The notes beneath the pieces were generated by a model. It made no database searches, was not told the DNA's origin, and worked only from the letters and a program-made list of their open reading frames with translations. From positions 10,788-74,787 of the forward strand of contig JAMDDD010000024.1 in the NCBI GenBank assembly GCA_023489275.1: a stretch of DNA of 64,000 nt, in the 5' to 3' direction. The position numbers were made by a program, and so were the translations under genes. The DNA comes from Actinomycetota bacterium. Its GTDB lineage: Bacteria; Actinomycetota; Thermoleophilia; BMS3ABIN01. Positions 2,805 through 46,016 of this stretch are shown here, in pieces (within the stretch, counting starts at the first letter, position 1; every line of letters starts with the position of its first letter).

Positions 2805-2814
2805 GAGCTTCCTA

Positions 2815-10528: not shown

Positions 10529-10553
10529 CAGCTGGTCCCCCGGGAGACGCTTT

Positions 10554-11357: not shown

Positions 11358-11380
11358 CCCGATTGGCCGCGGGTCCAGGG

Positions 11381-13411: not shown

Positions 13412-13594
13412 TTTTATGACAATAATTTTCCCGGATCATGGAGAAGTTTTTTCAGATAACCCTGGAGAGATCCCATGCTAGGCATCGGAAAAAAGAACTG
13501 CCAATTACAGGATACCACTGCTGCCTGCGGCTGTGGCGAAAAGAAGTTGGCAAGCACAGCCCGATGGAAAGGAGATGCCGGAATGAAACGGGTG

Positions 13595-17248: not shown

Positions 17249-17385
17249 TAAAACAAGGCAAATAGATCAAGAAATCAATCCTCTGTCATTATAACCGAAT
17301 CAGGGGCCGGTTGCCGATCGCGAAAGTTTTCCTCCGGCGAAAAGCAGGCAATTTTTCTTCGCGCGCCGGGGCCGGATCTGAAGCG

Positions 17386-18765: not shown

Positions 18766-19057
18766 CAGGCGCGCCTTTTAAAAAGCCAGCTCTCCGATCC
18801 CTGACGGAGACAGCCGGGTGTTGACCTCTGCCCGGCCGGGTAAATATATGTGCCGGCCCCGGCAGTCAGCTTCGCTCTTCGGACAGGAAGGAAAGATTTC
18901 TTGAGCATTATTTCCTCTTTCTATAGGATATGGCGGAAAATATTTCCTTCCCGCATTTCCGGTTTTGGCTTGTGTCCGCGATCGGCCCCGGCCTGCAGAT
19001 TATCTTCCAGTACTGGCAGGACCGGGAACGGCAGAGCTGCCTGTAGAAACCTCTTTA

Positions 19058-20806
19058 ATGAATCGCTTAAGAAAAGAATGGAATAGTCTTAAAGACGCGT
19101 GGGACGCCAGCCGCTGGGCTGGCAATCATGGCAATCCTTCGAGATTCATTATTATCGCCGGCACATTCTGCCTCTTCGCTTACATTTTATTCGCCATCCT
19201 GCCACTTTTCATTCCCGGAGCAGATTTTAGCCATTTCCCTCCCTATCTGGCGCTGCCGGATGGAGGTTTTAACCTGTCAAATTACTATTTTCTATATTTT
19301 CTGATCAGCTTCAACGCGCTCATGCTCTTTGGACTTTATTTTATTTCGCTAAAAAGCATCTCTGGCTACCGGGCGGATCCGGCTGATCTGGCACCGCCGC
19401 GGCGCTTCCGGCCCTGGAGGCGCAACCGGGAAACGAATTATGTTTTCAGCTTTGCCGCCCTGTTTCATTTGGTGATGCTGCTTACGCCATTTCTTCTGTC
19501 TACTGACCTTTTCGACTATATCCGGCATGGCCGCATCTTCGCCATCTACGGCGAGAACCCTCTAGTGGTGCCGGCCACTTATTTCCCTCACGACCCCTTC
19601 TTCAACCTGGGAGGCTGGCTCAGCACGGGCGCTGTTTACGGCCCCCTTCACGTTTACGCGACCGGCCTGCTGGCCTGGCTGGCCGGCAACGGCATCGGCG
19701 CCAACTTTCTGGTCTTCAAGGCTTTTTTCCTTGGCCTTAACTTGTTGAACGTCGTCCTGATTGGCTCCATCACCGCGCGCCTGCATCCTGGCCTCGAGAA
19801 AAAAGCCATGCTTTTCTATGGCTGGAATCCCTTTATCCTGGCGCTGGTGGTGGCCAACGCGCACAACGACATCCTGATGCTGACATTTGTTTTGCTTGGC
19901 ATAGCGTGTTTTTTAAAAAGGCGGTTCGTTGCCGGAGCGCTTCTGATTACTCTCGCCACGCTCGTTAAATTCATGGCGCTCCCGATACTCCTGGTTTACT
20001 TTGCGCTGGCGCTTCGCAAGCTAAAATCCTTTAGAGCCCGGCTGCTTTCCGGGGCCGGCATGCTGGCCGTGTCCGTGGGCGCGGTGGTGATTTCCTACTG
20101 GCGGTTATGGGAAGGCATGGATACCTTTAGATATCTGACCGACGTGGGGCAGAAGACCAATTTCACCATTCCGGGGCTCATGCGGGACATCGCCGCTGGG
20201 CACCTGCAGCTCTCGCTCTCGAATACGGTGGTGCAATTGACGGTGGCCATCCTTTTGCTCGGATACATTTTGTGGCATACTTTCGGCGTCAAGAATACGG
20301 CTTCGTTCCTGTCGGCCGCCGCCGGCATCGCCTTCCTGACGCCGCTCGCCCTTTTCTGGTTCCAGCCGTGGTACTTGACGATGGCAATGGGCCTGATCGC
20401 GCTCAGGCCTTGGCGGCTGATTTACAAAGTGTCGCTGGTTTTCTCATTCACAGTGATGTTTTTCGACAGTTTCTGGTGGCACACTCCCATGTCGATGGAT
20501 GTAGAGAAAAGCCTGCGGGTGCTCGTGGTTTTCGGACCGCCAATCGCTCTGCTTCTCTGGGCGAAAGGCCGGGAAGTTCTGCCGGCGGCCTGGCAGCGGA
20601 TCTGGTCCTGGTCGCTTGAGGGCAGCGCCAGGAGAGACGGGACTCTGGCTGCCACGGACCCCGCTCTGGTGAAAATCGTGGCGCAGGTCGCCGGCCTGTT
20701 TGCCGCCGCGCTGGTGCCGATGGCCTTAATTGTTTCGGTCTCTCCTCATCTCAGAGAGCTGACCAATCTGGTGTTCATGAAGTTTCAACTGCTTACCCAT
20801 CTGTAG
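19058..20806 (+). CDS. Polytopic integral membrane protein, putative GT-C-type glycosyltransferase
   Basis: About 580 aa with more than 12 TM helices. The stop overlaps the start of the next gene, so it heads a three-gene envelope operon. The assignment rests on topology only. Confidence 0.4.
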   Translation: MNRLRKEWNSLKDAWDASRWAGNHGNPSRFIIIAGTFCLFAYILFAILPLFIPGADFSHFPPYLALPDGGFNLSNYYFLYFLISFNALMLFGLYFISLKSISGYRADPADLAPPRRFRPWRRNRETNYVFSFAALFHLVMLLTPFLLSTDLFDYIRHGRIFAIYGENPLVVPATYFPHDPFFNLGGWLSTGAVYGPLHVYATGLLAWLAGNGIGANFLVFKAFFLGLNLLNVVLIGSITARLHPGLEKKAMLFYGWNPFILALVVANAHNDILMLTFVLLGIACFLKRRFVAGALLITLATLVKFMALPILLVYFALALRKLKSFRARLLSGAGMLAVSVGAVVISYWRLWEGMDTFRYLTDVGQKTNFTIPGLMRDIAAGHLQLSLSNTVVQLTVAILLLGYILWHTFGVKNTASFLSAAAGIAFLTPLALFWFQPWYLTMAMGLIALRPWRLIYKVSLVFSFTVMFFDSFWWHTPMSMDVEKSLRVLVVFGPPIALLLWAKGREVLPAAWQRIWSWSLEGSARRDGTLAATDPALVKIVAQVAGLFAAALVPMALIVSVSPHLRELTNLVFMKFQLLTHL

Positions 20807-21697
20807 ATGATCACCTGGCGTTATCACATTTTGACGATCGCCGCAATTTTCCTGGCGCTTTCCCTGGGAGTGCTTATCGGCATTGCCCTCACCGACAGCG
20901 GCAGAGTCAACAGCAGCCAGCAGGATCTAGTGAGCGGCATTCAACAGGATTTAACCAGCCTGCGAGACCAGGTCGATTCACTCGGCCGGGATAATTCGAT
21001 CAACCTCCGATTCCAGCAGGATGCATTTCCCTTTATCGTCGGAGGTCAGCTGCAGGGAAGAAAAATTGCCGTCATTGCGGCTGATGCCGCCGGCAGCGAT
21101 ATCCAGCGCAGGCTCGAATCAGCGATACACGGTGCCGGTGGACAGGTAATTTCCACCACGGTGTTAAATTCGAGATTCGATCAGAAGGCCATGAACGACA
21201 AGGTCAGAAATGATTGGAAAGACGACCCCTCGTATGCGGGGGCCGATGATGGAACCTTGATCAACTTAATCGCCCGCCAGCTCGACCGTGAGATCGTGAA
21301 GGCGGGAGGGGACAGGATGCTTTCAACCCTCCAGGGGACCCTGGTAGATTCGACCAGCGGCCGATACGATATCCCGGCTGACGGGGTCGTCATCATCTCC
21401 CGGTCCGATGACAAACAGACGTCTGCCTATTCCGAGGTGGAAAAACAGATGGCCATCGGACTGAACGAGCTGAGCGTAATTGCCGTCGGCTGCGAGACGA
21501 GCGACGCTCCCAGCTCTGAAATCCCCATTTACCTGAGCGCCGATATTTCTTCGGTGGACAACCTGGACAGCCCCATCGGTCAAGTTTCCGTTGTCTACGC
21601 GCTTGCCGGGGAAAAGGGAAATTATGGAATCAAAACAACGTCAAACATGCTGATTCCGATTCTGAGAAGTCCAAAATCGCAAACGGTCGCGCATTAA
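20807..21697 (+). CDS. MctB-like (DUF3186) envelope protein
   Basis: N-terminus ITWRYHILTIAAIFLALSLGVLIG and the AIHGAGGQVISTTVL block resemble mycobacterial MctB; single N-terminal TM. Confidence 0.55.
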   Translation: MITWRYHILTIAAIFLALSLGVLIGIALTDSGRVNSSQQDLVSGIQQDLTSLRDQVDSLGRDNSINLRFQQDAFPFIVGGQLQGRKIAVIAADAAGSDIQRRLESAIHGAGGQVISTTVLNSRFDQKAMNDKVRNDWKDDPSYAGADDGTLINLIARQLDREIVKAGGDRMLSTLQGTLVDSTSGRYDIPADGVVIISRSDDKQTSAYSEVEKQMAIGLNELSVIAVGCETSDAPSSEIPIYLSADISSVDNLDSPIGQVSVVYALAGEKGNYGIKTTSNMLIPILRSPKSQTVAH

Positions 21698-22600
21698 ATG
21701 AAATGCCGGCGCAATCCTGGGAAAACGGCCGCGGCTGCAATTCTTTTTCTCATGATTTTTTTGGCGGGGCCCGGCTGCTCGGGCAATAATCTCTCCTCAA
21801 CCAGAACGCCGGCCATATTAAAAACACAAACCGGGGCTACCGGCACCGTGATGACCGCGACCACGCCCGCCGGAGCTTTCCGGTTCCAACCGCTGGCGTT
21901 CCCGGCATCTATGCCAAGCCCCGCCCGCATTGTCAAGGTTCCCATCCTCATGTATCATCACATCGGCAGCCTCCCGCCTCGCGCAGACCTGATCCGCCGG
22001 GGACTAACGGTTTCTGCCGCCAACTTTAGCCGGCAGATGAGCTACCTGAAAGAGAGCGGATTTCATCCGGTTTCCCAAGCGGCGTTATTCGAGGCTCTGT
22101 TCGAGAACGAGCCGCTGCCGGACAAGCCTGTGGTGATCTCATTTGATGATGGCTACCGGGACAATTTCACGCAGGCTCTGCCGATCCTGGAAAGCTGCAA
22201 TTTTACGGCAACCTTCAACATCATCACGGCAAAGGTTGGCATCAAAGGTTTTATGAGCTGGAACCAGATTCTGGAGCTGCAATTCACCGGTATGGACATC
22301 GGCTCTCACACGGTTGACCATCAGGATCTGTCCATTCTCAGCGGCCCCGGCGTCAGGCATGAGCTGATTGATTCGGAGCAGACACTTGCATCCCACCTGG
22401 GCCATCCCGTCTACTGGCTTTGTTATCCGTCCGGCGCTTACAATGCCCGGGTTATCGCGGTGGCCCGGGAGGCCGGCTACCTGCTGGCGACAACAACGCA
22501 TCCGGGCGCGTACCAGAGCAGCGCCAAGCCGTTTGAACTAAACCGGCTCCGGGTGCGCAACGACACGACCCTGACGGAATTCGAGCAACTGCTCCGGTAG
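21698..22600 (+). CDS. Polysaccharide deacetylase (NodB homology domain), secreted
   Basis: Signal peptide followed by FDDGYRDNF and HTVDHQDL motifs. Confidence 0.8.
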   Translation: MKCRRNPGKTAAAAILFLMIFLAGPGCSGNNLSSTRTPAILKTQTGATGTVMTATTPAGAFRFQPLAFPASMPSPARIVKVPILMYHHIGSLPPRADLIRRGLTVSAANFSRQMSYLKESGFHPVSQAALFEALFENEPLPDKPVVISFDDGYRDNFTQALPILESCNFTATFNIITAKVGIKGFMSWNQILELQFTGMDIGSHTVDHQDLSILSGPGVRHELIDSEQTLASHLGHPVYWLCYPSGAYNARVIAVAREAGYLLATTTHPGAYQSSAKPFELNRLRVRNDTTLTEFEQLLR

Positions 22601-22616
22601 ACGCAGCCGTTTCATC

Positions 22617-23456
22617 CTAAGCCGTTTCTCCCTTGGCGTTTCCCTCCACAACCTCGGCGTCTGGCTGGCGCTTTTTTTGAACCAGCCGGCTCAAGTGAAT
22701 GCTGATCTCATACAAGAAAATAAACGGAACCGCCATCGCCAGCATCGACACAGCATCTTGCGAGGGCGTTAGGGCGGCGCTGATAACTGCGGCGGCGAGA
22801 ATGGCATAACGCCGGTTTTTCGCCAACTGTTTGGAGTTGACCAATCCGACGCGGGCCAAGGTCAAAAGCAGGGCGGGCAGCTCGAATATAATCCCAAACC
22901 CCAGCAGAAACAGGGTAATAAAAGAAAAATACTTGGACGCCTGCACCTGCGGGTGAAAGTAATCACTCTGGTAATTGAGCAGAAAAGGCAGCGCCCTTGG
23001 CACCACAAACCACCAACAGAAAGCAACGCCCCCGAGGAAAAGCAGTGACGAAAAAAAGGCCGCCATGATCGTCACCCGCTTTTCTTTGGTTTTCAGACCG
23101 GGGGCCACGAACGCCCAGATCTCGTAGATGATGACGGGAGAAGCCAGCAGAAATCCGGCATACAGGGAAACCTTAAAAGCAGTCATGAACGATTCCGTGG
23201 GCGCCAGGGTTATCAGCTGTTTTCCGTGAAGCGGCGCGACGAGGAACTCAAGCAAATACCCCTTGAAAATAAAACAAAGAGTGGCGCTGGCGCCCAGCGC
23301 CACGATCGAAATCACTATTCTTTTGCGGAGTTCCTCCAGATGCTCCACCAGGGGCATCCGAAAGTTGCGATAGTCTGCCAATGCCTGAGCCAGTTGAGTC
23401 GCGGGCGGCGATGATGTTTCCTGTCGCGGCCTGAAATACTTCTGCTTGCCGCTCAT
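22617..23456 (-). CDS. tatC: Twin-arginine translocase subunit TatC
   Basis: MPLVEHLEELRKRI start motif (alternative start at 23357) and six TM helices. Confidence 0.85.
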   Translation of the reverse strand: MSGKQKYFRPRQETSSPPATQLAQALADYRNFRMPLVEHLEELRKRIVISIVALGASATLCFIFKGYLLEFLVAPLHGKQLITLAPTESFMTAFKVSLYAGFLLASPVIIYEIWAFVAPGLKTKEKRVTIMAAFFSSLLFLGGVAFCWWFVVPRALPFLLNYQSDYFHPQVQASKYFSFITLFLLGFGIIFELPALLLTLARVGLVNSKQLAKNRRYAILAAAVISAALTPSQDAVSMLAMAVPFIFLYEISIHLSRLVQKKRQPDAEVVEGNAKGETA

Positions 23457-23560
23457 GAGCCAGCGCTTTATTGTTTCTTCCCAAAACGAAGCGAAAGCGA
23501 ACGCTACCTAAACGATGCGGCCATAAATGATTCTAGGTCAGAAGAAGCAGCCAAGTCAAT

Positions 23561-25012
23561 TTGACCGTTGAACGGGGTAGCGAGCTTTTGCCTGCAAATA
23601 TTGCTAAATTATATTTCATGACAAGACCGGACAGACCCTCGGTAGCGCAGCAAATTGAACTTGAGATAGAAAGCCTCGCTTTCGGCGGCCGGGGCTTAGC
23701 CCGCTTAAACGGATTTGTCATCTTTGTAGAGGGTGCATTACCGGGCGACCGGGTCCTTGCGGAGATCATCAGATCTACGCGTTCGTTTGCTGAGGCCAGA
23801 ACCGTCGCTGTGATCAGCCCTTCACAGGCGCGGATTGAGCCAGAGTGCCGGCATTTTGGCGTTTGCGGCGGGTGCTCCTGGCAAACGCTCGAATATCAGA
23901 CACAGCTAAAGTTCAAGCAGCGGCAGGTTGACGACTGCCTGTCACGCATCGGGGGCGTCGATGAATACGAAATCGACACGCCCTTGGGGGCGAGCCAAAT
24001 CTGGCGTTACCGCAACAAGGTCGAGTATTCTTTCACCGGCGATGAAGGCGGACTAAAACTTGGCTTTCACTTGCCGGGTGACTGGAGGCGGGTGATGGAC
24101 GTCGAAGACTGCCTGCTTCACTCCGAAACGACCAACCGGATGCGCGATTTTATTCGTGAGTTTGCGAGCCAGAGCGGGGCCGGTGCTTACGATCAGCGCT
24201 CGGGCAAGGGCTTCTGGCGCCATCTGGTGCTGCGCGAAGCCTTTCGCACCGGCGAATTCATGGTTAACATCGTGACAGCGCCTGGCGAATTTCCGGCCGC
24301 TCGCCGGTTTGTGAACGAAATTACCTCCACTTTCCCCGGGATCGCATCGCTCCTCTGGAGCGTTAATGGGGGTCGCTCGTCTGTGGCCGCCGGTTTTCCC
24401 TATCACGTTCTCGCCGGCCGTGACCATATTTTCGAAGAGATCGGCGGACTGAAGCTCGAGGTCTCACCCTCATCCTTTATGCAGACAAACACCGGCATGG
24501 CCGAGCGCCTTTACGGGAAGTCGCTTGAATATGGCGCTCCCGGAGCTGGTGATCTCGTCTTCGACCTCTATTCCGGGATCGGATCAATCGCCCTGTCGTT
24601 CGCGCGGCACTGCCGGGAGGTGGTTGGAATCGAGATTGTCGAGGAAGCGGTCCGCGCGGCGGCAGCGAATGCGCGACTAAACAATATTGAAAATGCTTCC
24701 TTCCGGTACGGAAAGGTGAGAAGCGTACTGAAGGAGATTCTTGCGGCAGGACGCGTCAGACAGGAATATGGCAGCGGCCCGGTAGAGCTGGTTATTCTCG
24801 ACCCGCCCCGGGCAGGCGCGAGCAAGAAGGAGATTCAGCGGATCCTGGAGCTCGATCCGGACCGGATTGTTTATGTTTCCTGCAATGCCGCGACGATGGC
24901 GGCTAATGCCTCCCGGTTGAAGGAAGGTGGGTACCGGCTGGTCAAGGCGGGCTCAGTTGACATGTTTCCCCACACTCCCCACATTGAAGTCGTCGCCAGT
25001 TTTAAAAAATGA
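23561..25012 (+). CDS. rlmD: 23S rRNA (uracil-5-)-methyltransferase RlmD/RumA family (TRAM plus SAM methyltransferase)
   Basis: TRAM domain, a four-Cys cluster (C..CGGC) and a C-terminal methyltransferase fold. The track start is TTG at 23561; an alternative ATG start is at 23618. Confidence 0.85.
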   Translation: MTVERGSELLPANIAKLYFMTRPDRPSVAQQIELEIESLAFGGRGLARLNGFVIFVEGALPGDRVLAEIIRSTRSFAEARTVAVISPSQARIEPECRHFGVCGGCSWQTLEYQTQLKFKQRQVDDCLSRIGGVDEYEIDTPLGASQIWRYRNKVEYSFTGDEGGLKLGFHLPGDWRRVMDVEDCLLHSETTNRMRDFIREFASQSGAGAYDQRSGKGFWRHLVLREAFRTGEFMVNIVTAPGEFPAARRFVNEITSTFPGIASLLWSVNGGRSSVAAGFPYHVLAGRDHIFEEIGGLKLEVSPSSFMQTNTGMAERLYGKSLEYGAPGAGDLVFDLYSGIGSIALSFARHCREVVGIEIVEEAVRAAAANARLNNIENASFRYGKVRSVLKEILAAGRVRQEYGSGPVELVILDPPRAGASKKEIQRILELDPDRIVYVSCNAATMAANASRLKEGGYRLVKAGSVDMFPHTPHIEVVASFKK

Positions 25013-25200
25013 CAGACGCGCCGGACCGCCCCGGTCTTAAAGGAATCAATGCGGAAATGACAAATAACTAAGGGCCGCTTGAGGCACCCTCTCACTGTTC
25101 AGCTTCAGCCTGTCATTTACTGAAAACGTCTCAGGCGCCGCTGGCGGCGAAGGCTGCCTGGTTTACGATTAATCGGGTGATTGTGATTTACGAGGTTTAA

Positions 25201-25806
25201 ATGTCCGGCCCCGAAGAAAATCTATATGACAAATATCTGACCCGGGCAATTTCTGAGATCAATGAGTTATGCCGGGAGCTAACCCATTGTGAAAAGTGCG
25301 CCCACGGTCCCGCGGTCCCGGTGATTGGATCAGGACACCCGCTGGCGGACATTTTCCTGGTCAAATACAGAACGCTTCCCAGCGAATCTTCCGAAGGGGT
25401 GGCGTTTTACGGCCCTTCTGGCGAAGCAGTGATGAAGAGTTGCCAGAAATTGGGGATCGACTCCCTTATACTTTACGGCACTGATATCATTAAGTGTGCC
25501 AACGTTTCCGAGGAAGAGGCTTTGGAGCACTGTTCGGCATTCCTCACCCGGGAGCTGATGATCGTACAGCCGAAACTTCTGGTTATCATGGGGGAGAAGG
25601 CCCTCGAGGCCGTTAACAGGCTGGAGTTCCCGCTTTCCCGGCGGCTGGAGTTCAAAGCAGGTGAAATCCAGCAATTTACTCCCACGGCGGAAGCGCTTGT
25701 GACTCCGGAAATCGACACCTCTCTAAATGACCAAAAAAGAAAAACAAGCTTCTGGAAATCATTCAGAATCCTTGGCGAATGGTACGAATCGCTTCCGCCC
25801 TACTAA
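25201..25806 (+). CDS. Uracil-DNA glycosylase, family 4
   Basis: CEKCAHGPAVPVIGSGHPLADIFLV...GPSG and HPS-like motifs are present. Confidence 0.8.
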   Translation: MSGPEENLYDKYLTRAISEINELCRELTHCEKCAHGPAVPVIGSGHPLADIFLVKYRTLPSESSEGVAFYGPSGEAVMKSCQKLGIDSLILYGTDIIKCANVSEEEALEHCSAFLTRELMIVQPKLLVIMGEKALEAVNRLEFPLSRRLEFKAGEIQQFTPTAEALVTPEIDTSLNDQKRKTSFWKSFRILGEWYESLPPY

Positions 25807-26632
25807 GCCGGAAGAAAGGCGTGTAGCACGCCTACAACGTAATGCCAACCAGAATGGAAGCTTCATCCGGAAGCCATTTCTCGCTTTCAAGCGGGAAATT
25901 TATTCGTTGCTCGTCTTTACCGGCATTTTCGGGTGCGCGGCGCTGCTTTTTTTCATGCTGACCCGGTCAGGTTTGGTTTCCCGCAACTCCGATTCAGGGT
26001 TGATGTTGGCGTTCATGCTTGGTCTCATCCTGGCCGGGGGGATTTCCTCCACGCTGGCTTTTCTATCCCGCCTTGGCCACCGGCTGCTCCTGGTTGCTCT
26101 CGGCTCCGCACTTGCCGCAGCGGCCGGAATCGCCACCGGCCTGGCGCCGCTGGAGCTTGCCGCAAAACTCTTGTTTGCCACCAGCGCCGGGCTCTGGGTC
26201 GGCATGATGCTTACATCTATCGGCCAGATCATTATCATCAGTGGCCTAATCATCCTGGTCGATTTTTACAGTGTCTTTCTTGGACCGACAAAAAAACTGC
26301 TTGAAAGCGGAGGCAAGGCGATCGATTACTTTACGATCAACCTGCCCGTCTTCGGCGCTCCAGCGGTTTCGAAAATTGGCGTCAGCGATCTGCTTTTCTA
26401 TGCGGTATTTCTCGGTTGCACACTTACATACAGGCTGAGGCGAATTACAACCGCCGTGGCAATGACGGCCTCGTTTGTCGGCACGATGATTATCGGCCTG
26501 ACGCTTAAAAGGGGCGTCCCCGCGCTGCCGCTGCTTTCCGTTTCTTTTCTGCTTTCCAACGCCGATCTGCTTTACCGGCGGTTTCTGGAAGAGCCTGATG
26601 AACAAAGAAAAAGGGGGGAAGAAAGGAATTAG
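25727..26632 (+). CDS. Presenilin/SPP-like (A22 family) intramembrane aspartyl-protease homolog; start uncertain
   Basis: Polytopic protein with LVDFYSVF (YD-like), KIGVSDLLFYAVFLG (GxGD-like) and GVPALPLL (PAL) motifs in the presenilin order. Its last 344 bp fall inside the tandem-duplication unit. Confidence 0.45.
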   Translation: MTKKEKQASGNHSESLANGTNRFRPTKPEERRVARLQRNANQNGSFIRKPFLAFKREIYSLLVFTGIFGCAALLFFMLTRSGLVSRNSDSGLMLAFMLGLILAGGISSTLAFLSRLGHRLLLVALGSALAAAAGIATGLAPLELAAKLLFATSAGLWVGMMLTSIGQIIIISGLIILVDFYSVFLGPTKKLLESGGKAIDYFTINLPVFGAPAVSKIGVSDLLFYAVFLGCTLTYRLRRITTAVAMTASFVGTMIIGLTLKRGVPALPLLSVSFLLSNADLLYRRFLEEPDEQRKRGEERN

Positions 26633-26659
26633 GGCCGGCCGCGCCAGGCCCAGTCAGCA

Positions 26660-27094
26660 ATGCGAATTTTTTTGTTGATTTATACGCTGTTCATGGTCGC
26701 CGGCAGCTTGTTTATGCTGGGCTTGGTGCCGCGTGCGCTTAAAGACCTGGGCCAGGAGCGCCAGCGCCTAAAACAGCAGGCCCCTCAGGCCGATTTCCAA
26801 TCAATGGTTGAAGCCGGCTACCGCGTCAACGTGACGCTGCTTTTGATCGAGATTCTTTATTATTATCTATTGCTTGGCTTCGGCGGTCCGGGATGGCAGT
26901 TTTTTTATGGCGGGTTTTCCTTCGGCTTGCTCCATATCGGCTATCTGATCACCGGCCGTCTGGAAAAACGAAGGCTGTCGCGGGGGTCAGCCAGGACGGC
27001 GTGGCCGCGTTTCTTGCTTTGGTTGACAGCAATTTTGACAGGTGTTGAAATAGTTTTTCTGGTGTATATCGCCTATCTCTTGCTGCAATCATAA
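26660..27094 (+). CDS. Small membrane protein with four predicted TM helices, hypothetical (copy 1)
   Basis: 144-aa ORF with hydrophobic segments; its own upstream spacer is duplicated with it. Confidence 0.5.
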   Translation: MRIFLLIYTLFMVAGSLFMLGLVPRALKDLGQERQRLKQQAPQADFQSMVEAGYRVNVTLLLIEILYYYLLLGFGGPGWQFFYGGFSFGLLHIGYLITGRLEKRRLSRGSARTAWPRFLLWLTAILTGVEIVFLVYIAYLLLQS

Positions 27095-27470
27095 GCGGAC
27101 AACAGACTCTGGGTGCTGGACTTTGAGTTACCCGGTTCTTGCTTTTCTCCAAAATCTGGTATTCAAAACTGAAAAAATGGACCGCCCTCACTACGATGGC
27201 ATCTATGTGCCAAAGTGGTAAATTCTTACCACTTAATCACGAAGAGAAAAGAGTCCGGGCGCAGATTACAACAGCAGCCCTTGACTTGGCAAAGAACGTT
27301 TTTCACTTTCACGCTGTTAATGGGAAAGGAAGAACCGTCTTAAAGAAACAGCTGGCCAGGAAGGCGTCCTACCGTTCTTTGCCAATCAAGCGCCCCGCCT
27401 GATTGGATTAGAAGCGCAAGGTGCAAGCACCTACCGGGCCAGAGAGCTGGGAAAGCTCGGTCACGAGGTG
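27095..27470 (+). mobile_element. IS110-family element remnant, copy 1: low-GC non-coding left end plus the transposase N-terminal fragment, cut by the duplication junction
   Basis: GC drops to ~45%. A perfect hairpin AAGTGGTAA-ATTC-TTACCACTT lies at 27214–27235. The translation LDLAKNVFHFHAVNGKGRTVLKKQLARK matches the IS110 transposase N-terminus. Confidence 0.6.
27250..27470 (+). pseudogene. IS110-family (DEDD) transposase N-terminal fragment, frameshifted and lacking a start codon (copy 1)
   Basis: AQITTAALDLAKNVFHFHAVNGKGRTVLKKQLARK is followed, in the +1 frame, by FFANQAPRLIGLEAQGASTYRARELGKLGHEV. Confidence 0.6.
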
Positions 27471-27841
27471 CAAAAAAACTGCTTGAAAGCGGAGGCAAGG
27501 CGATCGATTACTTTACGATCAACCTGCCCGTCTTCGGCGCTCCAGCGGTTTCGAAAATTGGCGTCAGCGATCTGCTTTTCTATGCGGTATTTCTCGGTTG
27601 CACACTTACATACAGGCTGAGGCGAATTACAACCGCCGTGGCAATGACGGCCTCGTTTGTCGGCACGATGATTATCGGCCTGACGCTTAAAAGGGGCGTC
27701 CCCGCGCTGCCGCTGCTTTCCGTTTCTTTTCTGCTTTCCAACGCCGATCTGCTTTACCGGCGGTTTCTGGAAGAGCCTGATGAACAAAGAAAAAGGGGGG
27801 AAGAAAGGAATTAGGGCCGGCCGCGCCAGGCCCAGTCAGCA

Positions 27842-28276
27842 ATGCGAATTTTTTTGTTGATTTATACGCTGTTCATGGTCGCCGGCAGCTTGTTTATGCT
27901 GGGCTTGGTGCCGCGTGCGCTTAAAGACCTGGGCCAGGAGCGCCAGCGCCTAAAACAGCAGGCCCCTCAGGCCGATTTCCAATCAATGGTTGAAGCCGGC
28001 TACCGCGTCAACGTGACGCTGCTTTTGATCGAGATTCTTTATTATTATCTATTGCTTGGCTTCGGCGGTCCGGGATGGCAGTTTTTTTATGGCGGGTTTT
28101 CCTTCGGCTTGCTCCATATCGGCTATCTGATCACCGGCCGTCTGGAAAAACGAAGGCTGTCGCGGGGGTCAGCCAGGACGGCGTGGCCGCGTTTCTTGCT
28201 TTGGTTGACAGCAATTTTGACAGGTGTTGAAATAGTTTTTCTGGTGTATATCGCCTATCTCTTGCTGCAATCATAA
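27842..28276 (+). CDS. Small membrane protein with four predicted TM helices, hypothetical (copy 2, identical)
   Basis: 100% identical duplicate of 26660–27094. Confidence 0.5.
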   Translation: MRIFLLIYTLFMVAGSLFMLGLVPRALKDLGQERQRLKQQAPQADFQSMVEAGYRVNVTLLLIEILYYYLLLGFGGPGWQFFYGGFSFGLLHIGYLITGRLEKRRLSRGSARTAWPRFLLWLTAILTGVEIVFLVYIAYLLLQS

Positions 28277-28764
28277 GCGGACAACAGACTCTGGGTGCTG
28301 GACTTTGAGTTACCCGGTTCTTGCTTTTCTCCAAAATCTGGTATTCAAAACTGAAAAAATGGACCGCCCTCACTACGATGGCATCTATGTGCCAAAGTGG
28401 TAAATTCTTACCACTTAATCACGAAGAGAAAAGAGTCCGGGCGCAGATTACAACAGCAGCCCTTGACTTGGCAAAGAACGTTTTTCACTTTCACGCTGTT
28501 AATGGGAAAGGAAGAACCGTCTTAAAGAAACAGCTGGCCAGGAAGGCGTCCTACCGTTCTTTGCCAATCAAGCGCCCCGCCTGATTGGATTAGAAGCGCA
28601 AGGTGCAAGCACCTACCGGGCCAGAGAGCTGGGAAAGCTCGGTCACGAGGTGCGGCTCATGAGCCCACAGTTTGTAAAACCGTTCATAAAGAGTTCGAAA
28701 AACAACCAAAACGACGCCGAGGCGATAGGAATCAAATTGGCAGGCAGGGAGAAGACCTGGTTCG
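28277..28764 (+). mobile_element. IS110-family element remnant, copy 2 (left end plus ~110 codons of transposase, 3' truncated against the GGDEF gene)
   Basis: Same as copy 1, then continues ...GHEVRLMSPQFVKPFIKSSKNNQNDAEAI, which matches IS110 transposases. The catalytic DEDD core and C-terminal domain are absent. Confidence 0.6.
28432..28764 (+). pseudogene. IS110-family transposase N-terminal fragment (copy 2), frameshifted and truncated
   Basis: Translated homology as above; no start codon; one frameshift near 28540. Confidence 0.6.
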
Positions 28765-29856
28765 TCAGGAGACAGCCAGCCGCTGTTTCCGGTGGGCCAC
28801 GCTGACACGGTTGCGGCCGCTTTTTTTAGCAACATATAGCAGCTGGTCAACCTTATCCAATAGTTCTTCACGAGACGAAGCCCCCAAGGGATAGCTGGCG
28901 ACGCCGGCGCTAACAGTGATGGCTGTGCTGGCGCCACCCACCGGCACCCGGGCCTGGGAGATAGCCCGCCTCAAACGGCCGGCCGTTTCGATGCCGGCTG
29001 ATTCGTCCCCAGGAATCAGGAGCACGAACTCCTCGCCACCAAAACGGGCGGCAATATCGGATTCGCGCTTTTCCCGCCTCAATGTAACCGCGACGGTTTT
29101 AAGCGCCTCGTTCCCCGCCCGGTGTCCAAACCGGTCGTTAAATTGCTTGAAATGATCGACATCGAACATAACCAGCGTGACTGAGCCGCCGTAGCGCTCT
29201 GCCCGGTGCATTTCGCGATCGAGGCAATCCATGAAAAAACCGTAATTGTAGAGGCCGGTAAGTGAATCGGTGATGGAGGACCGGAGCGTGTGCCGGTGCG
29301 CCAGTTTCTGCCGGCGTTGACCCCAGCCGAGCCCCAGGGCAATGGATGCAAACGTGACCAGGGCAATTATTATCGCCGGGCTCTTTTCGAAAGGAGTCTG
29401 AACCAGAAGCAAGCCGGTAAGCAGCAACGACAGCAGCGCGCCAGCCTCATAAAAATACCATGCCGAGAGGAGAATCGGCGCCGCCAGCAGCGGCCAGAAA
29501 TTATCTTGCCCCATAGCTTTAAGCGCCACCCACAGGAAAAAGAAGGCGCCACCGATAACGAGAACAATTTTCAGCCTGCGGTTTACCGCATCACTGCCGT
29601 GAAGAAAAGGAACTTTTACCGAAGGTTTTGGGGACTCCCGCCTGGGCCGGGCGGTGGCGGCCGGCCGGGCGCGTCTGCCAGACTGGCGGTGGCGACGCTG
29701 CCCGCGCCCTGCGCTCGCGGCTCTTTGTTGGGAAACTGAACCGACCCGGCTTCCCCCAAAAGCGCCAGCTTCGAAGAGTTCCTTATGGTCTGCTGCCGAA
29801 TGCCCGGGTTGACTGCCTTTCGAGCCGCCCGAGCCTGACATTCGCTCAATTTTCAT
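28765..29856 (-). CDS. Membrane-anchored GGDEF-domain diguanylate cyclase
   Basis: RFGGEEFVLL active-site motif. N-terminal TM helices are preceded by an Arg-rich low-complexity segment. Confidence 0.85.
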   Translation of the reverse strand: MKIERMSGSGGSKGSQPGHSAADHKELFEAGAFGGSRVGSVSQQRAASAGRGQRRHRQSGRRARPAATARPRRESPKPSVKVPFLHGSDAVNRRLKIVLVIGGAFFFLWVALKAMGQDNFWPLLAAPILLSAWYFYEAGALLSLLLTGLLLVQTPFEKSPAIIIALVTFASIALGLGWGQRRQKLAHRHTLRSSITDSLTGLYNYGFFMDCLDREMHRAERYGGSVTLVMFDVDHFKQFNDRFGHRAGNEALKTVAVTLRREKRESDIAARFGGEEFVLLIPGDESAGIETAGRLRRAISQARVPVGGASTAITVSAGVASYPLGASSREELLDKVDQLLYVAKKSGRNRVSVAHRKQRLAVS

Positions 29857-30079
29857 GCCTTGCCCCAGGTTTTGGCAAACAATTAATCCTTAATAAATAC
29901 ATTTACTCGCTGCTTGCCCTTCTTCCTTCGATGGGCGCTGCCGCCGGCTACAGAGATCGCGGGCGGCGCCCCCGGGAACAAAAAGTGCTTGACCTGCCTG
30001 CGCTAAGGACTTGCCCCTGCGTCCTTGACCATGGTTTTTTTGCTCAGCCTCGCATACGTATGCCATTTGAGACAGGTTC

Positions 30080-32392
30080 TCAACCACACCGTGAGAAGCC
30101 GCATGACCGGCAGAAGACGCATCCCTCACCAAATTCCAGGCTGGTGCTGCCACATTCGGGGCATTCAGGGCAATGAGCCAGCTCCGCCGACGGCCGCAGT
30201 TCCATCGATTCAATATTTCCGGCCAGTTTTGGCATTTTTTCCAGATGAACCAGTAGCGCCTGGGCGATCGCATCCGGACAGGAATTTACCTTAACACCGT
30301 CCGAGTAGCCCGGCGTGGGGCAACGGATGCCCTTCACTGACTTTACGACGGCATCTACCGCCACTCCGGATCTCAGCGCCAGCGAGATTAACCGCGCAAT
30401 GGCTTCAGATTGGGCGCCCTTGCAACCTCCCGCAAGTCCCATCGATGAGAAAACCTCGAAAAGTCCATGTTCGTCCTGGTTGATTGTGACGTAAATGTTG
30501 CCGCAGCCAGACGTCAGCTTGTGCGTCCCTCCTGTAATAAAACCTGGCCTCGGCCGCGGCTTGACCTGACCGGGAATAAATCCGTTTTTCGCCTGCTTGT
30601 TTCCGGCAATATTTAATACCTGGATCTCACGACTGCCGTCCCGGTAGATTGTGACGCCCTTGCACCCGGTGCGGTAAGCGAGCATGTAAGCCCGCTTTAC
30701 GTCGTCCGTCAAGGCGTCATGGGGAAAGTTGACGGTCTTGGAGACAGCGTTATCAGTAAACTTCTGAAAAGCAGCCTGCATGCGGATATGCCATTCGGGG
30801 CTGACATCGTGCGCGGTAACGAACAGGGATTTCATTTCATCCGGGATCTCCGGCAGATCCTTGAGGCTTCCCTTCTTGGCGATCTCTTTCATCAGCTCCT
30901 CACTGTAGTATCCGCCATCCCTGGCCATTCTCTCGAAGGAGCGATGAACTTCAACCATTTCCGTGTTATCAAGCACGTTCCTGACGTAAGAAACTGCGAA
31001 CAGGGGCTCGATACCGCTGGAACACCCGGCAATTATGCTCAGGGTGCCGGTGGGAGCAATTGTGGTGGTGGTGGCGTTGCGAACCTTCAACCCTGGCGCA
31101 GTATCATAAATGCTGCCCTCAAAATTTGGAAACGCACCCCGTTCCTCCGCCAGCTGTGCGGACTTTTTCCCGGCTCGGTCCCGGATAAACTCCATGATTT
31201 CCGCGGCGACGGTTACTGCTTCCTCCGAATTGTACGGGATACCCAGTTCTATGAGGAGGTCAGCGAATCCCATCACTCCCAGGCCAATCTTGCGATTGGC
31301 CTTGGTCTTCTGTTCAATCTCCGGCAGCGGGTAATTGTTAACATCGATGACATTGTCAAGAAAATGAACCGCTCCGTCGACGACATGGCCCAGATGCTCA
31401 TAATCGAGCTCGCCGGCAGATCCGATCATTCGGGATAGATTGATCGAGCCGAGATTACAGGATTCGAAAGGAAGGAGGGGCTGCTCGCCGCAGGGGTTGG
31501 TGCTCTCGATCTCACCAATATGAGGCGTCGGATTATCACGGTTAATCCGGTCGATGAAAATGATCCCCGGGTCTCCGTTCTTCCACGCGAGATTGACAAT
31601 CATCTCAAACACCCGCCTCGCTTCCAGGCTTTTTGATACCTTGCCCGTGCGGGGATTAACCAGATCATATTCTTCATCCCGGTCAACAGCTTCCATGAAC
31701 TCTTCCGTCAAGGCAACGGAGATGTTGAAGTTATTCAGCCTGTCGTTGCTTTGCTTGGCGGTAATAAAATCAAGGATATCGGGGTGGTCCACGCGCAGAA
31801 TCCCCATGTTGGCGCCCCGCCGCGTCCCGCCCTGTTTAATCGTTTCGGTAGCCGCATCAAACACGGTCATGAACGAGATGGGTCCGCTGGAGACTCCCTT
31901 GGTTGACAGCACCACATCATTGCTGGGGCGGATGCGGGAAAAAGAGAAACCGGTTCCCCCACCGCTCTTGTGGATCAGGGCGGTGTTCTTGATAGCGTCA
32001 AAAATACTCTCCATTGAATCGCCAATCGGGAGCACGAAACAGGCCGACAGCTGCCCCAGTTCTCTGCCGGCGTTCATCAACGTAGGCGAGTTCGGTAAAA
32101 ACTCAAGCCTGGCCATCATCCGGTAGAATTCTTCTTCCACAGCCTCAATATCAGCCTCGCGGTCATGGATCAGATCAGCCTGAGCAATGGTTGACGCCAC
32201 CCGCCGGAACATCTCGGCCGGCGTCTCGACTGGATTCCCATCTTCATCTTTTTTAAGATACCTCTTCTCCAGCACTTTCATCGCATTGGGCGATAGCTGC
32301 GGCTTTAACGGCAAAGACGATATCCGGGAGCCTTTACTGGAAGCCTGCTGGTGTTGATTGACTAACATGGAGTGTTTCCCCTTTCCAGGCAA
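30080..32392 (-). CDS. nrdJ: Adenosylcobalamin-dependent ribonucleotide reductase (class II, NrdJ) with C-terminal zinc ribbon
   Basis: 770-aa protein with the class II RNR N-terminus ([30 protein letters not shown]) and a C-terminal CPECPECG...CVFCRSCG module. Confidence 0.9.
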
Positions 32393-32491
32393 TCGGCCAA
32401 TGAAAGATTGTAGACTGCCAGCCGGACGGACCTTTCTCCAGCGCCGCAGGCTACCTGTTGATGGGTCCCCCGACCGTATGAATTTGAGTTT

Positions 32492-32938
32492 CTATGATAA
32501 TTTTGACAATTCACGCTGAAACTCTTCAACATCCTCAAAATGTCTGTAAACAGAGGCGAAGCGGACATAGGCGACCTTGTCCAGACTCTTTAGCTGGCTT
32601 AAAACCCGATCGCCAATCTCCGCCGACGGCACTTCCGTTTTAAATTCATTTCGTAACGCCGCCTCGACGGAATCAACAAATTTTTCCAGAGCCCCGGCAT
32701 CAACAGGACGTTTTTCACAGGCCCGCACCAGCCCCTCGAGCAGTTTGGACCGGGAAAAGACCTCCCGCTCGCCCCTTCTTTTAACCACGACCAGCGGCGC
32801 TTCTTCCACTCGTTCGTAGGTGGTAAAACGACGCTGGCAACTCAGACATTCGCGCCGGCGCCGGATCGCATCCCCGGAGTCAGTATCACGGGAATCAACC
32901 ACTTTCATCTGCATCGATTCACAAAAAGGACATTTCAC
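32492..32938 (-). CDS. nrdR: Transcriptional repressor NrdR
   Basis: Zinc ribbon (MKCPFCES...CLSCQRRFTTYERVE) plus an ATP-cone. Confidence 0.9.
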   Translation of the reverse strand: MKCPFCESMQMKVVDSRDTDSGDAIRRRRECLSCQRRFTTYERVEEAPLVVVKRRGEREVFSRSKLLEGLVRACEKRPVDAGALEKFVDSVEAALRNEFKTEVPSAEIGDRVLSQLKSLDKVAYVRFASVYRHFEDVEEFQRELSKLS

Positions 32939-32981
32939 CGTTATCGACTACATATTGGTGATTGTACATCGCTGACATACA
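32938..32981. promoter_or_regulatory. Candidate tandem NrdR boxes upstream of nrdR–nrdJ
   Basis: CACCAATATGTA (reverse complement) and ACATACAATATTTCGTG share the ACAnnATAT half-site; their centres are ~32 bp apart. Confidence 0.3.
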
Positions 32982-33259
32982 ATATTTCGTGGTAAGAAGG
33001 TCATATCCTGCATGTATCTGAAATGTTAAACCGTTGTTAACACCGGGTAAAGGCCTTGCGGAAAAAGTTTATCTCGCAAATTGCAACATTCAGGATGATA
33101 AGGCTCAAGTTGAACTTTATAGTTGATTAAGATGACCGGTTTAACATAATTGCTTCGGTTGATAAAAAGTTGACTTATAACCAGTCTGGATTTAAAACCT
33201 CACCGGGAAGTAATTTGTACCAGGACCGGGGAAAAGAACTTGAGCCGCTTTTGTCGGCT

Positions 33260-35068
33260 CTATTGATTACGCTGCTCGCGGCGCCCTTTTTCCAGCCGTT
33301 TGGTTAGCTCCGCCGGATCCATGGCCGCCGGCTGGCAAGTTGACCCAATACATATAAATGCCATCGGCCTGTCCCGGTAGCCATAACCGGTAACTTCAAG
33401 CTCCTCGCCATGAATGTCCGGGTCCAGAATCTCCACCGAGCGAAACGGGAGGCGCGCCCGGTGTGCGGCTTTGATCATCTCCAGCGTGGGATTCGCGGCA
33501 GGAGGCCCGATGATTGTTACCCGCACCGGGGGCTCCAGCATCCGCTGTACGGCGCAGGCATAGTCAGCGGCGAAGATGCCTTTCTCTTTGTATGAGTCGC
33601 TATAGCAGGAAAGCGCCCCCCGGGCACTGTCCCCGAAACGTGGCTGGCCCGTTGTCTGGGCCAGCCTCACCAGCGCCGAAGCCGCCAGGCTATTTTCCAC
33701 GATCGGCTTTTCCCGCTTGGCAAAAAAGCCGCTCGGTCCCAGGGGCAGATTGGTGTCAAAAAAACCGCCCCTCTCTTTGTCCTCAAGGTTTGCCAGCACC
33801 CAGGATGCTGTCGAAACCGCACGGTCCAGCCACACCTCCCCGGCTCCGCTTTCAAAAGCGTCAATGCAAGCGGGAACCAGCCTGGCCGCGTCAACGAGCA
33901 AACCTGGCGCGAAAGCGTTTCCATTGAAGTAGTGGCTCGGTCCCCCCGGCTGCGTCCACATCCGGTTAAATATGAATTCAAGCGCCCCCAGCGCCAGGTC
34001 GCGGAATTCAGGATCGCCAAACACCTGAAAGGCTCTCAGGAGCGCCGAAGCTGCGACCGCGTTTGCGGAAAAATACACCGTAAAGTCAACTCGCGGCGCG
34101 GTGGTCCGGGCCCGCCCGCCGGCATCCAGCAAGTAATAATGCTCATCGGCTTCCTGACTGCCGCCAAACGCCCCGGTCTCCCGGTCCAGCAGCACCGAAT
34201 CAAGATAGCGGTAAATGTCGCGGGCGACAGATTCGTACCCCGGTTCTTCCGTCAGCAGAAAAGCATCAGCGTAAACCGCGAGCAGGGCAGCATTGTCTTC
34301 CAGGAGTTTCTCGTAATGAGGGGTGCTCCAGTCTCTTGCGGTTGAGTAGCGGAAAAAGCCGCCCTCGACCCGGTCATAGAGTCCGCCTGCGGCCATCGCG
34401 TCGAGGCTGGCCGTGAGCAGATTCGCAACTGCTTCGATATAGCCATCGGCGAGAGTCATCAAGAGGAAATTAAGCGCTGAGGGATAGGGAAATTTGGGTT
34501 CGATCCCGAAGCCGCCGCTTTCCTCGTCATAACTGTAAGCTATCATCCGGAGGACATTAGCGGCCACGGATTCATCCGGCTCGCTTCCGGAAGCGGCGAC
34601 CTCCAAATCCAGCTCCTGCCGGATCTGCCGCACCGCCTCGACCACCTTCTCCCGGTTATTGACATACAGATCGGAAAAATCAGCCAGCAAGCAGCTTAAT
34701 TGATCAGGAGACAAGTAGGTGGTGCCACCGACCGATTCGCCATCGGGAGTGAGAAAAGCAACCGTCGGCAGGCCTCCCTGGTTATACCGGCTGTTAATCT
34801 CAGGCCGCCGGTCGCTGTCTACGCGCACCGGTATAAAGTTCTCATTGATCAGGCTGATGACGCTTTCATCGGAATAGCAGGTCTCGTCCATCACGTGGCA
34901 CCAATGACACCAGGAGGCTGAAATCGCCAGCAGCACAGGCTTCCCCTGGTATTCGGATTGCTTAAACGCGTCCTCGCTCCACTCCCGCCAGTTTATCTCC
35001 CGCGCGCGGTTCGGCCGCGGGGAAAAGCGGAAAACTTGATCGCTGTCTTTTTTCTGTTTATCTTCCAC
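33260..35068 (-). CDS. Thioredoxin-domain (DUF255/YyaL-like) protein with six-hairpin glycosidase-like domain
   Basis: AISASWCHWCHVMDETCYSDESV thioredoxin-like N-terminus followed by a long alpha/alpha-toroid-like region. Confidence 0.8.
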   Translation of the reverse strand: MEDKQKKDSDQVFRFSPRPNRAREINWREWSEDAFKQSEYQGKPVLLAISASWCHWCHVMDETCYSDESVISLINENFIPVRVDSDRRPEINSRYNQGGLPTVAFLTPDGESVGGTTYLSPDQLSCLLADFSDLYVNNREKVVEAVRQIRQELDLEVAASGSEPDESVAANVLRMIAYSYDEESGGFGIEPKFPYPSALNFLLMTLADGYIEAVANLLTASLDAMAAGGLYDRVEGGFFRYSTARDWSTPHYEKLLEDNAALLAVYADAFLLTEEPGYESVARDIYRYLDSVLLDRETGAFGGSQEADEHYYLLDAGGRARTTAPRVDFTVYFSANAVAASALLRAFQVFGDPEFRDLALGALEFIFNRMWTQPGGPSHYFNGNAFAPGLLVDAARLVPACIDAFESGAGEVWLDRAVSTASWVLANLEDKERGGFFDTNLPLGPSGFFAKREKPIVENSLAASALVRLAQTTGQPRFGDSARGALSCYSDSYKEKGIFAADYACAVQRMLEPPVRVTIIGPPAANPTLEMIKAAHRARLPFRSVEILDPDIHGEELEVTGYGYRDRPMAFICIGSTCQPAAMDPAELTKRLEKGRREQRNQ

Positions 35069-35159
35069 CAGATATCAAATAAGTTTCGCATAGATAGTTA
35101 TTCAAATAAAAGCTAAAGAAGCAATCAACGGCAACTTCGATTGCTTATATAATGTCTTT

Positions 35160-36536
35160 ATGGAGTCTTCGCCGACAGTTGCCGCGATTTCCACGCCGCT
35201 GGGAGCGGGCGCCATCGGGATCGTGCGCATGACCGGATCTGAGGCGATCGACATCTGCGACCGCATATTTACCGGTCGACGGCCGCTCGCCGAAGCTGCC
35301 TCGCATACGCTGAATTACGGCGTCATTCTTGATCCAAAAACTAAAGAGGCAGTCGACGAAGTGCTTGTCGGCGTCATGCGGTCGCCGGCCAGTTACACGC
35401 GCGAAGATATTGTTGAAGTCAACTGCCATGGCGGTCCCGTCGTTCTGCAAAAAATACTCTCGTTTTTCCTGGATGGCGGCGCGCGGCTGGCCGGCCCCGG
35501 AGAATTTACCAGGCGCGCTTTTTTAAACGGCAGGCTGGATCTGGCGCAGGCAGAGAGCGTCGCGCAGATTATTGCCGCCAAGACCGGCGCTGGTTTGCGT
35601 GTGGCAATGTCACAGCTTGGCGGGGGGCTTTCGGAGACAATCAAGTCTCTGCGCTGGTCGATCCTGAACGTCCTGGCGGCGGTAGAGGCGGGAATCGACT
35701 TCTCGGACGAAGACATTGAGGAGCTGGACAAAAGCGAGGCGGAAGCAAGGCTGGAGCAGATCAATCAGCAGATCGGGGAACTCGTTAATACGGCATTTGC
35801 GGGCCGCGTTCTAAATCAGGGCGTCCGGACCGCGATTGTCGGTCAGCCCAATGTCGGCAAGTCCAGCCTGCTAAACGCGATGCTGATGCGAGAGAGAGCC
35901 ATAGTCACCGAGATCCCGGGCACAACCCGGGACACAATCGAAGAGGTGATAAACGTAAAAGGCATCCCGCTGCTTTTAATCGATACCGCGGGGTTACGGC
36001 CGCACGCGGACACCGTCGAGAAGATTGGCGTCGAGCGCAGCCTGAGGGCGATGAAAGAAGCGGATCTCATCCTTTGCCTTTTTGACGGCAGCCAGCAGGA
36101 GAACGATCATGACCGGGCGCTGCTGACATCTGTACCGGCGGAAAAAACCGTTTACGTAATTAATAAGTGTGACAAATTTCGTGGACGTCAACCCGTGTTT
36201 AATCTGGGCCTGCTGCCATCGCAGCCGGTAATAATCTCCGCGCTGACCCGCCAGGGTATGCGGGATTTGACGGAAAAAATCGCCGCAGCTGTCCTGGGCG
36301 GGTCTATTCCGCCTCTGGAAAACCCGATCGTGACTCAGGAGCGCCACCTCCGGCTCCTGACAGAAGCATCTTCTTTTCTGAACAGAGCAGCTCAAGGCCT
36401 GCGGGTTGGGCTTGGGGAGGAGCTGATCGCCGAGGAGCTGCGTTCGGCCCTGTCAGCCCTGGATGAAATCACCGGGGAGGAGTTCATCGACGATCTCCTC
36501 GATACTATCTTTCACGAATTCTGCATCGGCAAGTAA
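35160..36536 (+). CDS. mnmE: tRNA modification GTPase MnmE
   Basis: G-domain motifs (GQPNVGKSS, DTAG, NKCD) and the C-terminal CIGK. Confidence 0.9.
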   Translation: MESSPTVAAISTPLGAGAIGIVRMTGSEAIDICDRIFTGRRPLAEAASHTLNYGVILDPKTKEAVDEVLVGVMRSPASYTREDIVEVNCHGGPVVLQKILSFFLDGGARLAGPGEFTRRAFLNGRLDLAQAESVAQIIAAKTGAGLRVAMSQLGGGLSETIKSLRWSILNVLAAVEAGIDFSDEDIEELDKSEAEARLEQINQQIGELVNTAFAGRVLNQGVRTAIVGQPNVGKSSLLNAMLMRERAIVTEIPGTTRDTIEEVINVKGIPLLLIDTAGLRPHADTVEKIGVERSLRAMKEADLILCLFDGSQQENDHDRALLTSVPAEKTVYVINKCDKFRGRQPVFNLGLLPSQPVIISALTRQGMRDLTEKIAAAVLGGSIPPLENPIVTQERHLRLLTEASSFLNRAAQGLRVGLGEELIAEELRSALSALDEITGEEFIDDLLDTIFHEFCIGK

Positions 36537-36557
36537 ATACCGGGAGCGGCTCGTATC

Positions 36558-37616: not shown

Positions 37617-37631
37617 CATATTACAGATTAA

Positions 37632-40225: not shown

Positions 40226-40295
40226 CGCGTCCCTTTCAATTACGCTATATGGAAGCCTTCTGGCCAGGGCCGCCTGCATCTGATAAAATTTCTTC

Positions 40296-42302: not shown

Positions 42303-42314
42303 CCCGAATCCGCT

Positions 42315-44381: not shown

Positions 44382-44588
44382 CCTGGCAGGGACGAATCAT
44401 ATCACAAGGAGGTAAAACGTTGCAGCCCCCTGAGCATGAAACGATCCCCAGGGTCTATCCCGCCAGGTGGTTCGTGGCGACCGGGAAGCAAAGAGAAATA
44501 AAAGCAGATAATTGAATTTGGCTGCCAGATTCTTTTGCATCGGCACTATCGATTCCATCCAAAGTCAAATAACCAAAAAATCCGCTTT

Positions 44589-45995: not shown

Positions 45996-46016
45996 CCCGC
46001 AGGTGGCTGAGAAAAA

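Follow-up and report, generated by a model that had tools for sequence, protein, structure and literature searches.

An exact 1182-bp tandem repeat in a Thermoleophilia metagenome contig, covering the 3' end of a presenilin-fold membrane protein gene, is most likely not a feature of the genome

The window analysed here is a stretch of 64,000 nucleotides from a metagenome-assembled genome (MAG) of an Actinomycetota bacterium of the lineage Thermoleophilia (GenBank assembly GCA_023489275.1, contig JAMDDD010000024.1, positions 10,788 to 74,787). It contains a unit of 1182 bp that stands twice, head to tail, and that carries the 3' end of a presenilin-like protease gene, a complete gene for a 144-aa membrane protein and a part of an IS110-family remnant. 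Our computational analysis established that the duplication is present in the deposited record, that the ancestral state of the locus is single-copy and that independent assemblies of this strain have the unit once. As a genomic feature the duplication is most likely not real, and at best it is a known and commonplace event. The explanation that we consider probable is that the second copy is a product of assembly or scaffolding, or a minority variant, and that the locus is truly and predominantly single-copy.

The two copies (26289-27470 and 27471-28652, neither of them assigned to a strand) were compared directly and by self-BLAST and agree at 1182 of 1182 positions, with 0 mismatches, which confirms the exact tandem duplication reported in a preliminary description of the window; self-BLAST gave no other long repeat within the 64 kb. 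Tandem Repeats Finder did not detect the duplication because the longest period of the program is 500. The identity extends 0 bp beyond the units on the left and 1 bp on the right, where the C at 28653 repeats the first base of each unit (C at 26289 and 27471), leaving 1 bp of microhomology; an A7 run adjoins the join, and the window has 0 Ns, the join included. The unit boundaries read CTTGGACCGACAAAAAAACTGC on the left and GGTCACGAGGTGCGGCTCATGAGC on the right, and the novel junction, GGTCACGAGGTG followed by CAAAAAAACTGC (27459-27482, plus strand), leads from within the IS110 pseudogene into codon 188 of the protease-like gene. It was said to lie inside the transposase fragment and does so, in the middle of the N-terminal domain. 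The junction 24-mer GGTCACGAGGTGCAAAAAAACTGC occurs once in the window, at these positions, for 0 occurrences expected by chance, and the sequence therefore displays what a genuine tandem should display, namely two head-to-tail copies and a single novel junction. In the GenBank annotation of the source MAG (contig of 98,224 bp) the genes are doubled in the same way: MCL6106613-MCL6106617, with locus tags from M1309_04615 to about _04635, are in turn a protease-like protein of 205 aa, a protein of 140 aa, an orphan of 58 aa, the identical 140-aa protein again and a GGDEF protein; MCL6106614.1 and MCL6106616.1, which are the copies of the 144-aa gene as annotated by GenBank, are one identical 140-aa sequence.

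The evidence against a second copy in the genome comes from same-strain contigs in Logan, which is built on a 31-mer de Bruijn graph from which only singleton k-mers are dropped, using Minia3 with SPAdes-like simplification (PMC12424806). Over window 16660-31508 the contig SRR10244963_895 (14.4 kb) has 100% identity; it holds the unit once and is unbranched through the locus, its bases 1-10812 corresponding to window 16660-27471 and its bases 9630-13667 to window 27471-31508. A contig from a second run, SRR33270670_67487, has 100% identity over window 17845-27227 and continues without a branch through the left boundary at 26289, and two further contigs of these runs agree with window 31484-46536 and 31484-43311 at every position. 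Altogether 28.7 kb (window 16660-46536 minus the extra copy) show 0 mismatches to the contigs of SRR10244963 and SRR33270670, so that both runs sample the same clone as the window. The exact 144-aa protein was found in a protein-position index on only two contigs, both from Logan (SRR10244963 and SRR33270670), and exact-sequence look-up of the 301-aa open reading frame (ORF) of the protease-like gene, of the 58-aa orphan, of a 687-aa topoisomerase and of a junction-spanning minus-strand ORF of 108 aa returned 0 contigs from the contig index. Nothing was found in the literature on run SRR10244963.

A tandem present at full frequency would be expected to branch the graph at both unit boundaries and to break a Logan contig there. 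Since the single-copy path is unbroken, the junction should be absent from the Logan reads or rare in them, and the independent same-strain contigs show neither the junction nor a doubled copy. This continuity argument rests on the behaviour of a de Bruijn assembler and not on a count of junction reads. That such graph breaks do occur can be seen in both Logan runs at window 31484-31508, inside a ribonucleotide reductase (RNR) gene, where the neighbouring contigs overlap by 25 bp; the MAG contig reads through these positions, and the Logan breaks there may reflect strain variation or a repeated k-mer.

Comparison with related genomes, which had been proposed as a check, revealed a single copy in 10 of 10 related assemblies, with the same gene order. 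The ten relatives are eight species-level MAGs of a genome collection (the 93% relative JACWAM010000002.1 and seven more), the 96%-identical MAG JAJYIY010000001.1 and a Logan contig of SRR13170411. In all of them a TrmA-like gene, a uracil-DNA glycosylase (UDG) gene, the protease-like gene (P301) and the 144-aa gene (P144) are followed by GGDEF and RNR genes on the opposite strand. None of the 17 loci compared contains the junction 24-mer, and three further loci are without a second copy of the unit. A junction 32-mer had 0 matches in JGI metagenome contigs, and a protein scan of metagenomes returned only relatives at 59-60%.

In the explanation that we favour, the true order of the locus would be UDG, the presenilin-fold protein, the 144-aa membrane protein, the dead IS110 remnant and GGDEF on the opposite strand. 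The second copy could have arisen by one of two routes: in the first, a scaffolding, gap-closing or assembly-merging step placed two sequences end to end and left their overlap of 1182 bp unmerged; in the second, the assembler followed a loop backed solely by rare chimeric or minority-variant reads. We infer that the source reads lack the junction or barely contain it. In this explanation the second copy would be without biological meaning: the population would not have fixed a functional change of dosage or gained a gene, and a transposase would not be involved. An assembly-made repeat should be absent from other assemblies of the same population, have identical copies and be joined without biological logic, and this is what was found; the zero divergence between the copies and a junction that creates nothing functional were counted in the same direction. 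Artefacts of metagenome assembly include duplicate sequence at scaffold joins despite an overlap, a wrong number of repeats and concatenated identical blocks hundreds of bp long (PMC7111523). The window resembles the duplications described by Chen et al. (2020, Genome Res, PMC7111523) in that an identical block is repeated head to tail and can be found by a repeat finder, is missing from independent assemblies of the same population and has a biologically meaningless junction. Those cases often have Ns at the join or are located in repeat-rich regions, whereas the window is without Ns and its sequence is otherwise unique.

Several points weigh against an assembly product. Only 1 bp is common to both sides of the junction, and ambiguity of k-mers in a de Bruijn graph cannot create such a junction; a false loop from a repeated k-mer was rejected for this reason, and the junction consequently needs either reads that contain it or a concatenation blind to the overlap. 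There are no Ns at the join, and SRR33270670_67487, which ends at 27227, gives no information on the right boundary. The MAG may have been assembled from reads other than those of the two Logan runs, and a real duplication specific to one sample of an otherwise identical clone is conceivable. Finally, the simplification performed by Minia3 could remove a junction edge of low coverage, and a minority real variant would then be invisible in the Logan runs.

The best of the rival explanations, which we judge possible but clearly less probable, is a real and very recent duplication in the sampled population, produced by RecA-independent illegitimate recombination at the 1-bp microhomology beside the A7 run. 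Replication slippage or unequal sister-chromatid exchange would have doubled the 144-aa gene and left a startless orphan fragment of the protease gene. Duplications mediated by microhomology are expected to have a clean novel junction, and the window has one, with 1 bp of microhomology and no Ns, which a de Bruijn assembler cannot invent from shared k-mers; identical copies fit a recent event, and the source of the MAG may be a read set other than the Logan runs. A scan for intrinsic terminators found no terminator-like site between the stop of the 144-aa gene and the junction (the terminator and promoter scan was otherwise uninformative), so that transcription of copy 2 by read-through is conceivable. 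The structure also has the features of spontaneous tandem duplications in bacteria, that is, identical copies head to tail, a homology of 0 to a few bp, complete genes doubled and broken genes at the join. Such duplications, reportedly recognised as intermediates of gene amplification in the work of Roth, Andersson and colleagues, are transient and usually confined to a minority of cells unless selected, but here independent read sets of the same clone give no sign of one. A real duplication is expected to be unstable and to be lost by homologous recombination unless the extra dosage of the 144-aa gene is selected, and a consensus MAG would show it only if it were dominant in the population. 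Against it stand also two independent read sets of the same clone (100% identity over 28.7 kb), whose contigs are single-copy or pass a unit boundary without a branch, and the relatives, all of them single-copy, the junction having been found nowhere else. If real, this would be an ordinary, unstable event, a transient microhomology duplication of little consequence, and there is no evidence that it has a function.

A variant of this rival, according to which the duplication is real and is selected in one sub-population for doubled dosage of the 144-aa protein, as the conserved partner encoded directly downstream of a hitherto unannotated presenilin-fold protease, appears very improbable to us. 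Under such selection the orphan fragment may correspond to a separately transcribed C-terminal ('CTF-like') half of the protease, and a stoichiometry-sensitive protease-partner pair would exist in Thermoleophilia. Even less credit is given to a junction stemming from an extrachromosomal circle of 1182 bp or from a chimera formed in the library (e.g., during amplification) that was assembled as a tandem. A circle and a tandem share the junction sequence and a low-frequency junction would be explained, but no mechanism and no element boundaries fit a circle, direct evidence is lacking, and this scenario overlaps with the assembly product from rare reads that we favour, of which it is a sub-case.

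The last rival concerns the IS110 element, and requires a description of what is left of it. The full remnant (28358-28735, plus strand) comprises about 80 bp of left-end sequence and about 100 N-terminal transposase codons and is truncated at its 3' side; the approximate bounds of this insert were taken from the alignment with the 93% relative (L003), which is without the remnant. Its copy-1 part (27176-27470, plus strand, equal to 28358-28652, identified by a tblastn match of the corrected peptide) is cut by the junction. With one frameshift corrected, 28432-28735 encodes a peptide (...ITTAALDLAKNVFHFHAVNGKGRTVLKKQLARK/GVLPFFANQAPRLIGLEAQGASTYRARELGKLGHEVRLMSPQFVKPFIKSSKNNQNDAEAIG) which is recognised by the NCBIfam model NF033542, 'IS110 family RNA-guided transposase' (E 1.3e-19; the match covers positions 2-101 of the 343 in the profile), and only marginally by Pfam PF01548 (E 0.042), in agreement with the IS110 left end and N-terminal transposase fragment announced for each unit. 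The GC content of the remnant is 0.50, compared with 0.563 for the window. The N-terminal DEDD (RuvC-like) transposase domain is thus present, and these 100 residues have the motifs LDLAK, GLEA.G and QFVKP..K..KND..DAEAI of the IS110/IS1111 family, which is characterised by a DEDD transposase, a circular intermediate and a bridge RNA. The remnant differs from this family in being a truncated pseudogene that lacks both the C-terminal domain and the right end and in which no guide RNA was detected; Rfam at a permissive threshold gave no bridge-RNA-like or other credible RNA in 28200-28900.

The same truncated remnant is found at the same place and with the same end point in the 96% relative (L014), where it does not have the frameshift of the window, and it was therefore dead already in the common ancestor of lineages that are about 4% diverged. 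The duplication, with its perfectly identical copies, is much younger than the remnant, and the position of a breakpoint in the latter looks coincidental. The frameshift is due to a 1-bp deletion at 28545-28550 (27363-27368 in copy 1), where the window has GGCGT-CCTACC and L014 has GGCGTCCCTACC; the L014 fragment is in frame and equally truncated. In addition, contigs from two runs and two strains (SRR33270670 and SRR13170411) end at about 27224-27227, some 50 bp into the remnant region and just after a GTGGTAA-ATTC-TTACCAC hairpin that the SRR10244963 contig reads through, and these ends may mark a branch in the graph, due either to other IS110 copies or to strain variants in those communities.

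The preliminary description tied the rearrangement to the IS110-type element, whose circular or recombinase-generated intermediate would have seeded the tandem, but, although one breakpoint does lie inside the transposase fragment, the idea is essentially excluded: neither a complete transposase with its C-terminal domain nor both ends of an element are there, only positions 2-101 of the 343 in the profile being left, and frameshifted; the single, old remnant is common to a diverged, single-copy relative of about 96% and died long before the duplication; the junction does not bring a left end against a right end as in a circle but joins internal points, one in the middle of the N-terminal domain and the other at codon 188 of an unrelated gene; the remnant is not placed at the duplication boundaries in a way that an IS mechanism would predict; the short left end is without an RNA-family match; and no other IS110 copy was found within the 64-kb window, for which reason a nearby active copy acting in trans was rejected as well.

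The duplicated genes themselves largely correspond to what had been described. The unit starts within codon 188 of ORF 25727-26632 (301 codons), so that each unit has the last 114 codons, including GVSD (D221) and PAL (265-267); that these codons belong to a presenilin-like protease with GxGD-like and PAL motifs is supported by the motif alignment of 31 homologues, by a profile and by a fold model. The orphan 3' fragment (27471-27814, plus strand) keeps these last 114 codons with GVSD and PAL, without the first aspartate (D179), and the only GenBank call within it is the 58-aa ORF MCL6106615.1, which is exactly window 27638-27814. The transposase fragment was thought to be fused in frame to this orphan, without a start codon. 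The second part is correct, there being no start codon before GTG 27638, but the frame is not that of the transposase, because the open frame that enters the orphan fragment (RNSWPGRRPTVLCQSSAPPDWIRSARCKHLPGQRAGKARSRGA followed by KKLLESGG...) differs from the transposase frame (...LIGLEAQGASTYRARELGKLGHEV). The P144 gene, located 27 bp downstream of P301, is on the plus strand in copy 1 (26660-27094) and in the identical copy 2 (27842-28276), and its ORF is complete in both, as reported; the hydropathy scan gave three strong hydrophobic segments and a weaker one, where four transmembrane helices had been predicted. P144 has no match in Pfam and NCBIfam, its homologues (at least 56% identity) are only close Thermoleophilia-type relatives, and this downstream partner is confined to that close lineage. 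The neighbours are not duplicated: on the left, the UDG family gene (25201-25806, plus strand; PF03167, E 1e-9) overlaps the start of P301, and on the right is the GGDEF diguanylate cyclase gene (28765-29856, minus strand; PF00990, E 5.4e-40), at the same syntenic place in all relatives.

The intact P301 gene (plus strand) ends at 26632 and its likely start is 25772. The longest ORF, from 25727, has 301 aa, Prodigal on the Logan contigs gives 286 aa (25772) and GenBank/PGAP 205 aa; the 286-aa form is supported by the N-termini of the homologues (M-x-NGTNRFR...), and two or three transmembrane helices are probably missing from the GenBank call. P301 has no match above threshold in Pfam or NCBIfam, its score with PF01080 (Presenilin) being 9.6 bits for a cut-off of 34.3, and the best PF01080 E-value among 31 family members, 2.3e-4, is also short of the threshold of the curated model. 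In the alignment of the 31 homologues, D179 (VDxYSVFxGPT), G218 and D221 (IGxSD) are invariant, as are A266, L267 and P268, while P265 comes close to being so (at least 90%; AALP in two members). The family has the local motifs VD and G-x-[SPA]-D, not YD and GxGD, and they align to the GLGD of presenilin. Both conserved transmembrane aspartates and the PAL motif expected of the MEROPS family A22 are therefore represented, the latter aligning to the PALP of presenilin. Searched against the PDB, a profile of the family alignment gave as top matches only presenilin-1 and -2 (E 1.2e-4 to 1e-3), in which GxGD and PAL are aligned and the YD...GP region is aligned less strongly. An AlphaFold model of P301 (pLDDT 84.9, pTM 0.79) has the presenilin fold expected of A22, the top-18 Foldseek matches all being SPPL2a or presenilin-1. 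On these motifs and this predicted structure, the label 'presenilin-like' holds up. Compared with the GxGD intramembrane aspartyl proteases of A22 (presenilin, signal peptide peptidase and archaeal PSH), the P301 family is bacterial (Thermoleophilia/Actinomycetota), about 240-290 aa long, has VD/GxSD for YD/GxGD and stays below the Pfam Presenilin cut-off; its proteolytic activity is a prediction from motifs and model.

The P301 family is sizeable, with 1228 representatives of 50%-identity clusters at E <= 1e-3 and 682 at <= 1e-10. None of the members scanned reaches the Pfam Presenilin threshold, and some carry fused Glyoxalase or metallophosphatase domains. The pairing of UDG with P301, next to a TrmA-like methyltransferase, is kept in a member of 28% identity (L018 3441-4759) that has no 144-aa partner.

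The main value of this analysis lies in quality control, since a deposited MAG contig probably holds a spurious 1182-bp repeat. Three GenBank proteins are doubtful: the 58-aa orphan and the duplicate 140-aa protein, which stem from the repeat, and, independently of it, the shortened 205-aa protease-like call. The by-product may matter more, namely a sizeable bacterial presenilin-fold family, named by no Pfam or NCBIfam model and consistently linked to UDG.

Elsewhere in the window, two riboswitches score over the Rfam gathering score, an M-box (magnesium) riboswitch at 1262-1430 (144.5 bits) and a fluoride riboswitch at 56150-56212 (47.3 bits). A cluster at 35160-42000 comprises trmE, a short GidA-family gene (36558-37616), a full-length gidA/mnmG (37632-39521), gidB, parA and parB, a set of genes typical of an origin-proximal region, and the two adjacent GidA-family genes have in common a 56-bp stretch at 82% identity.

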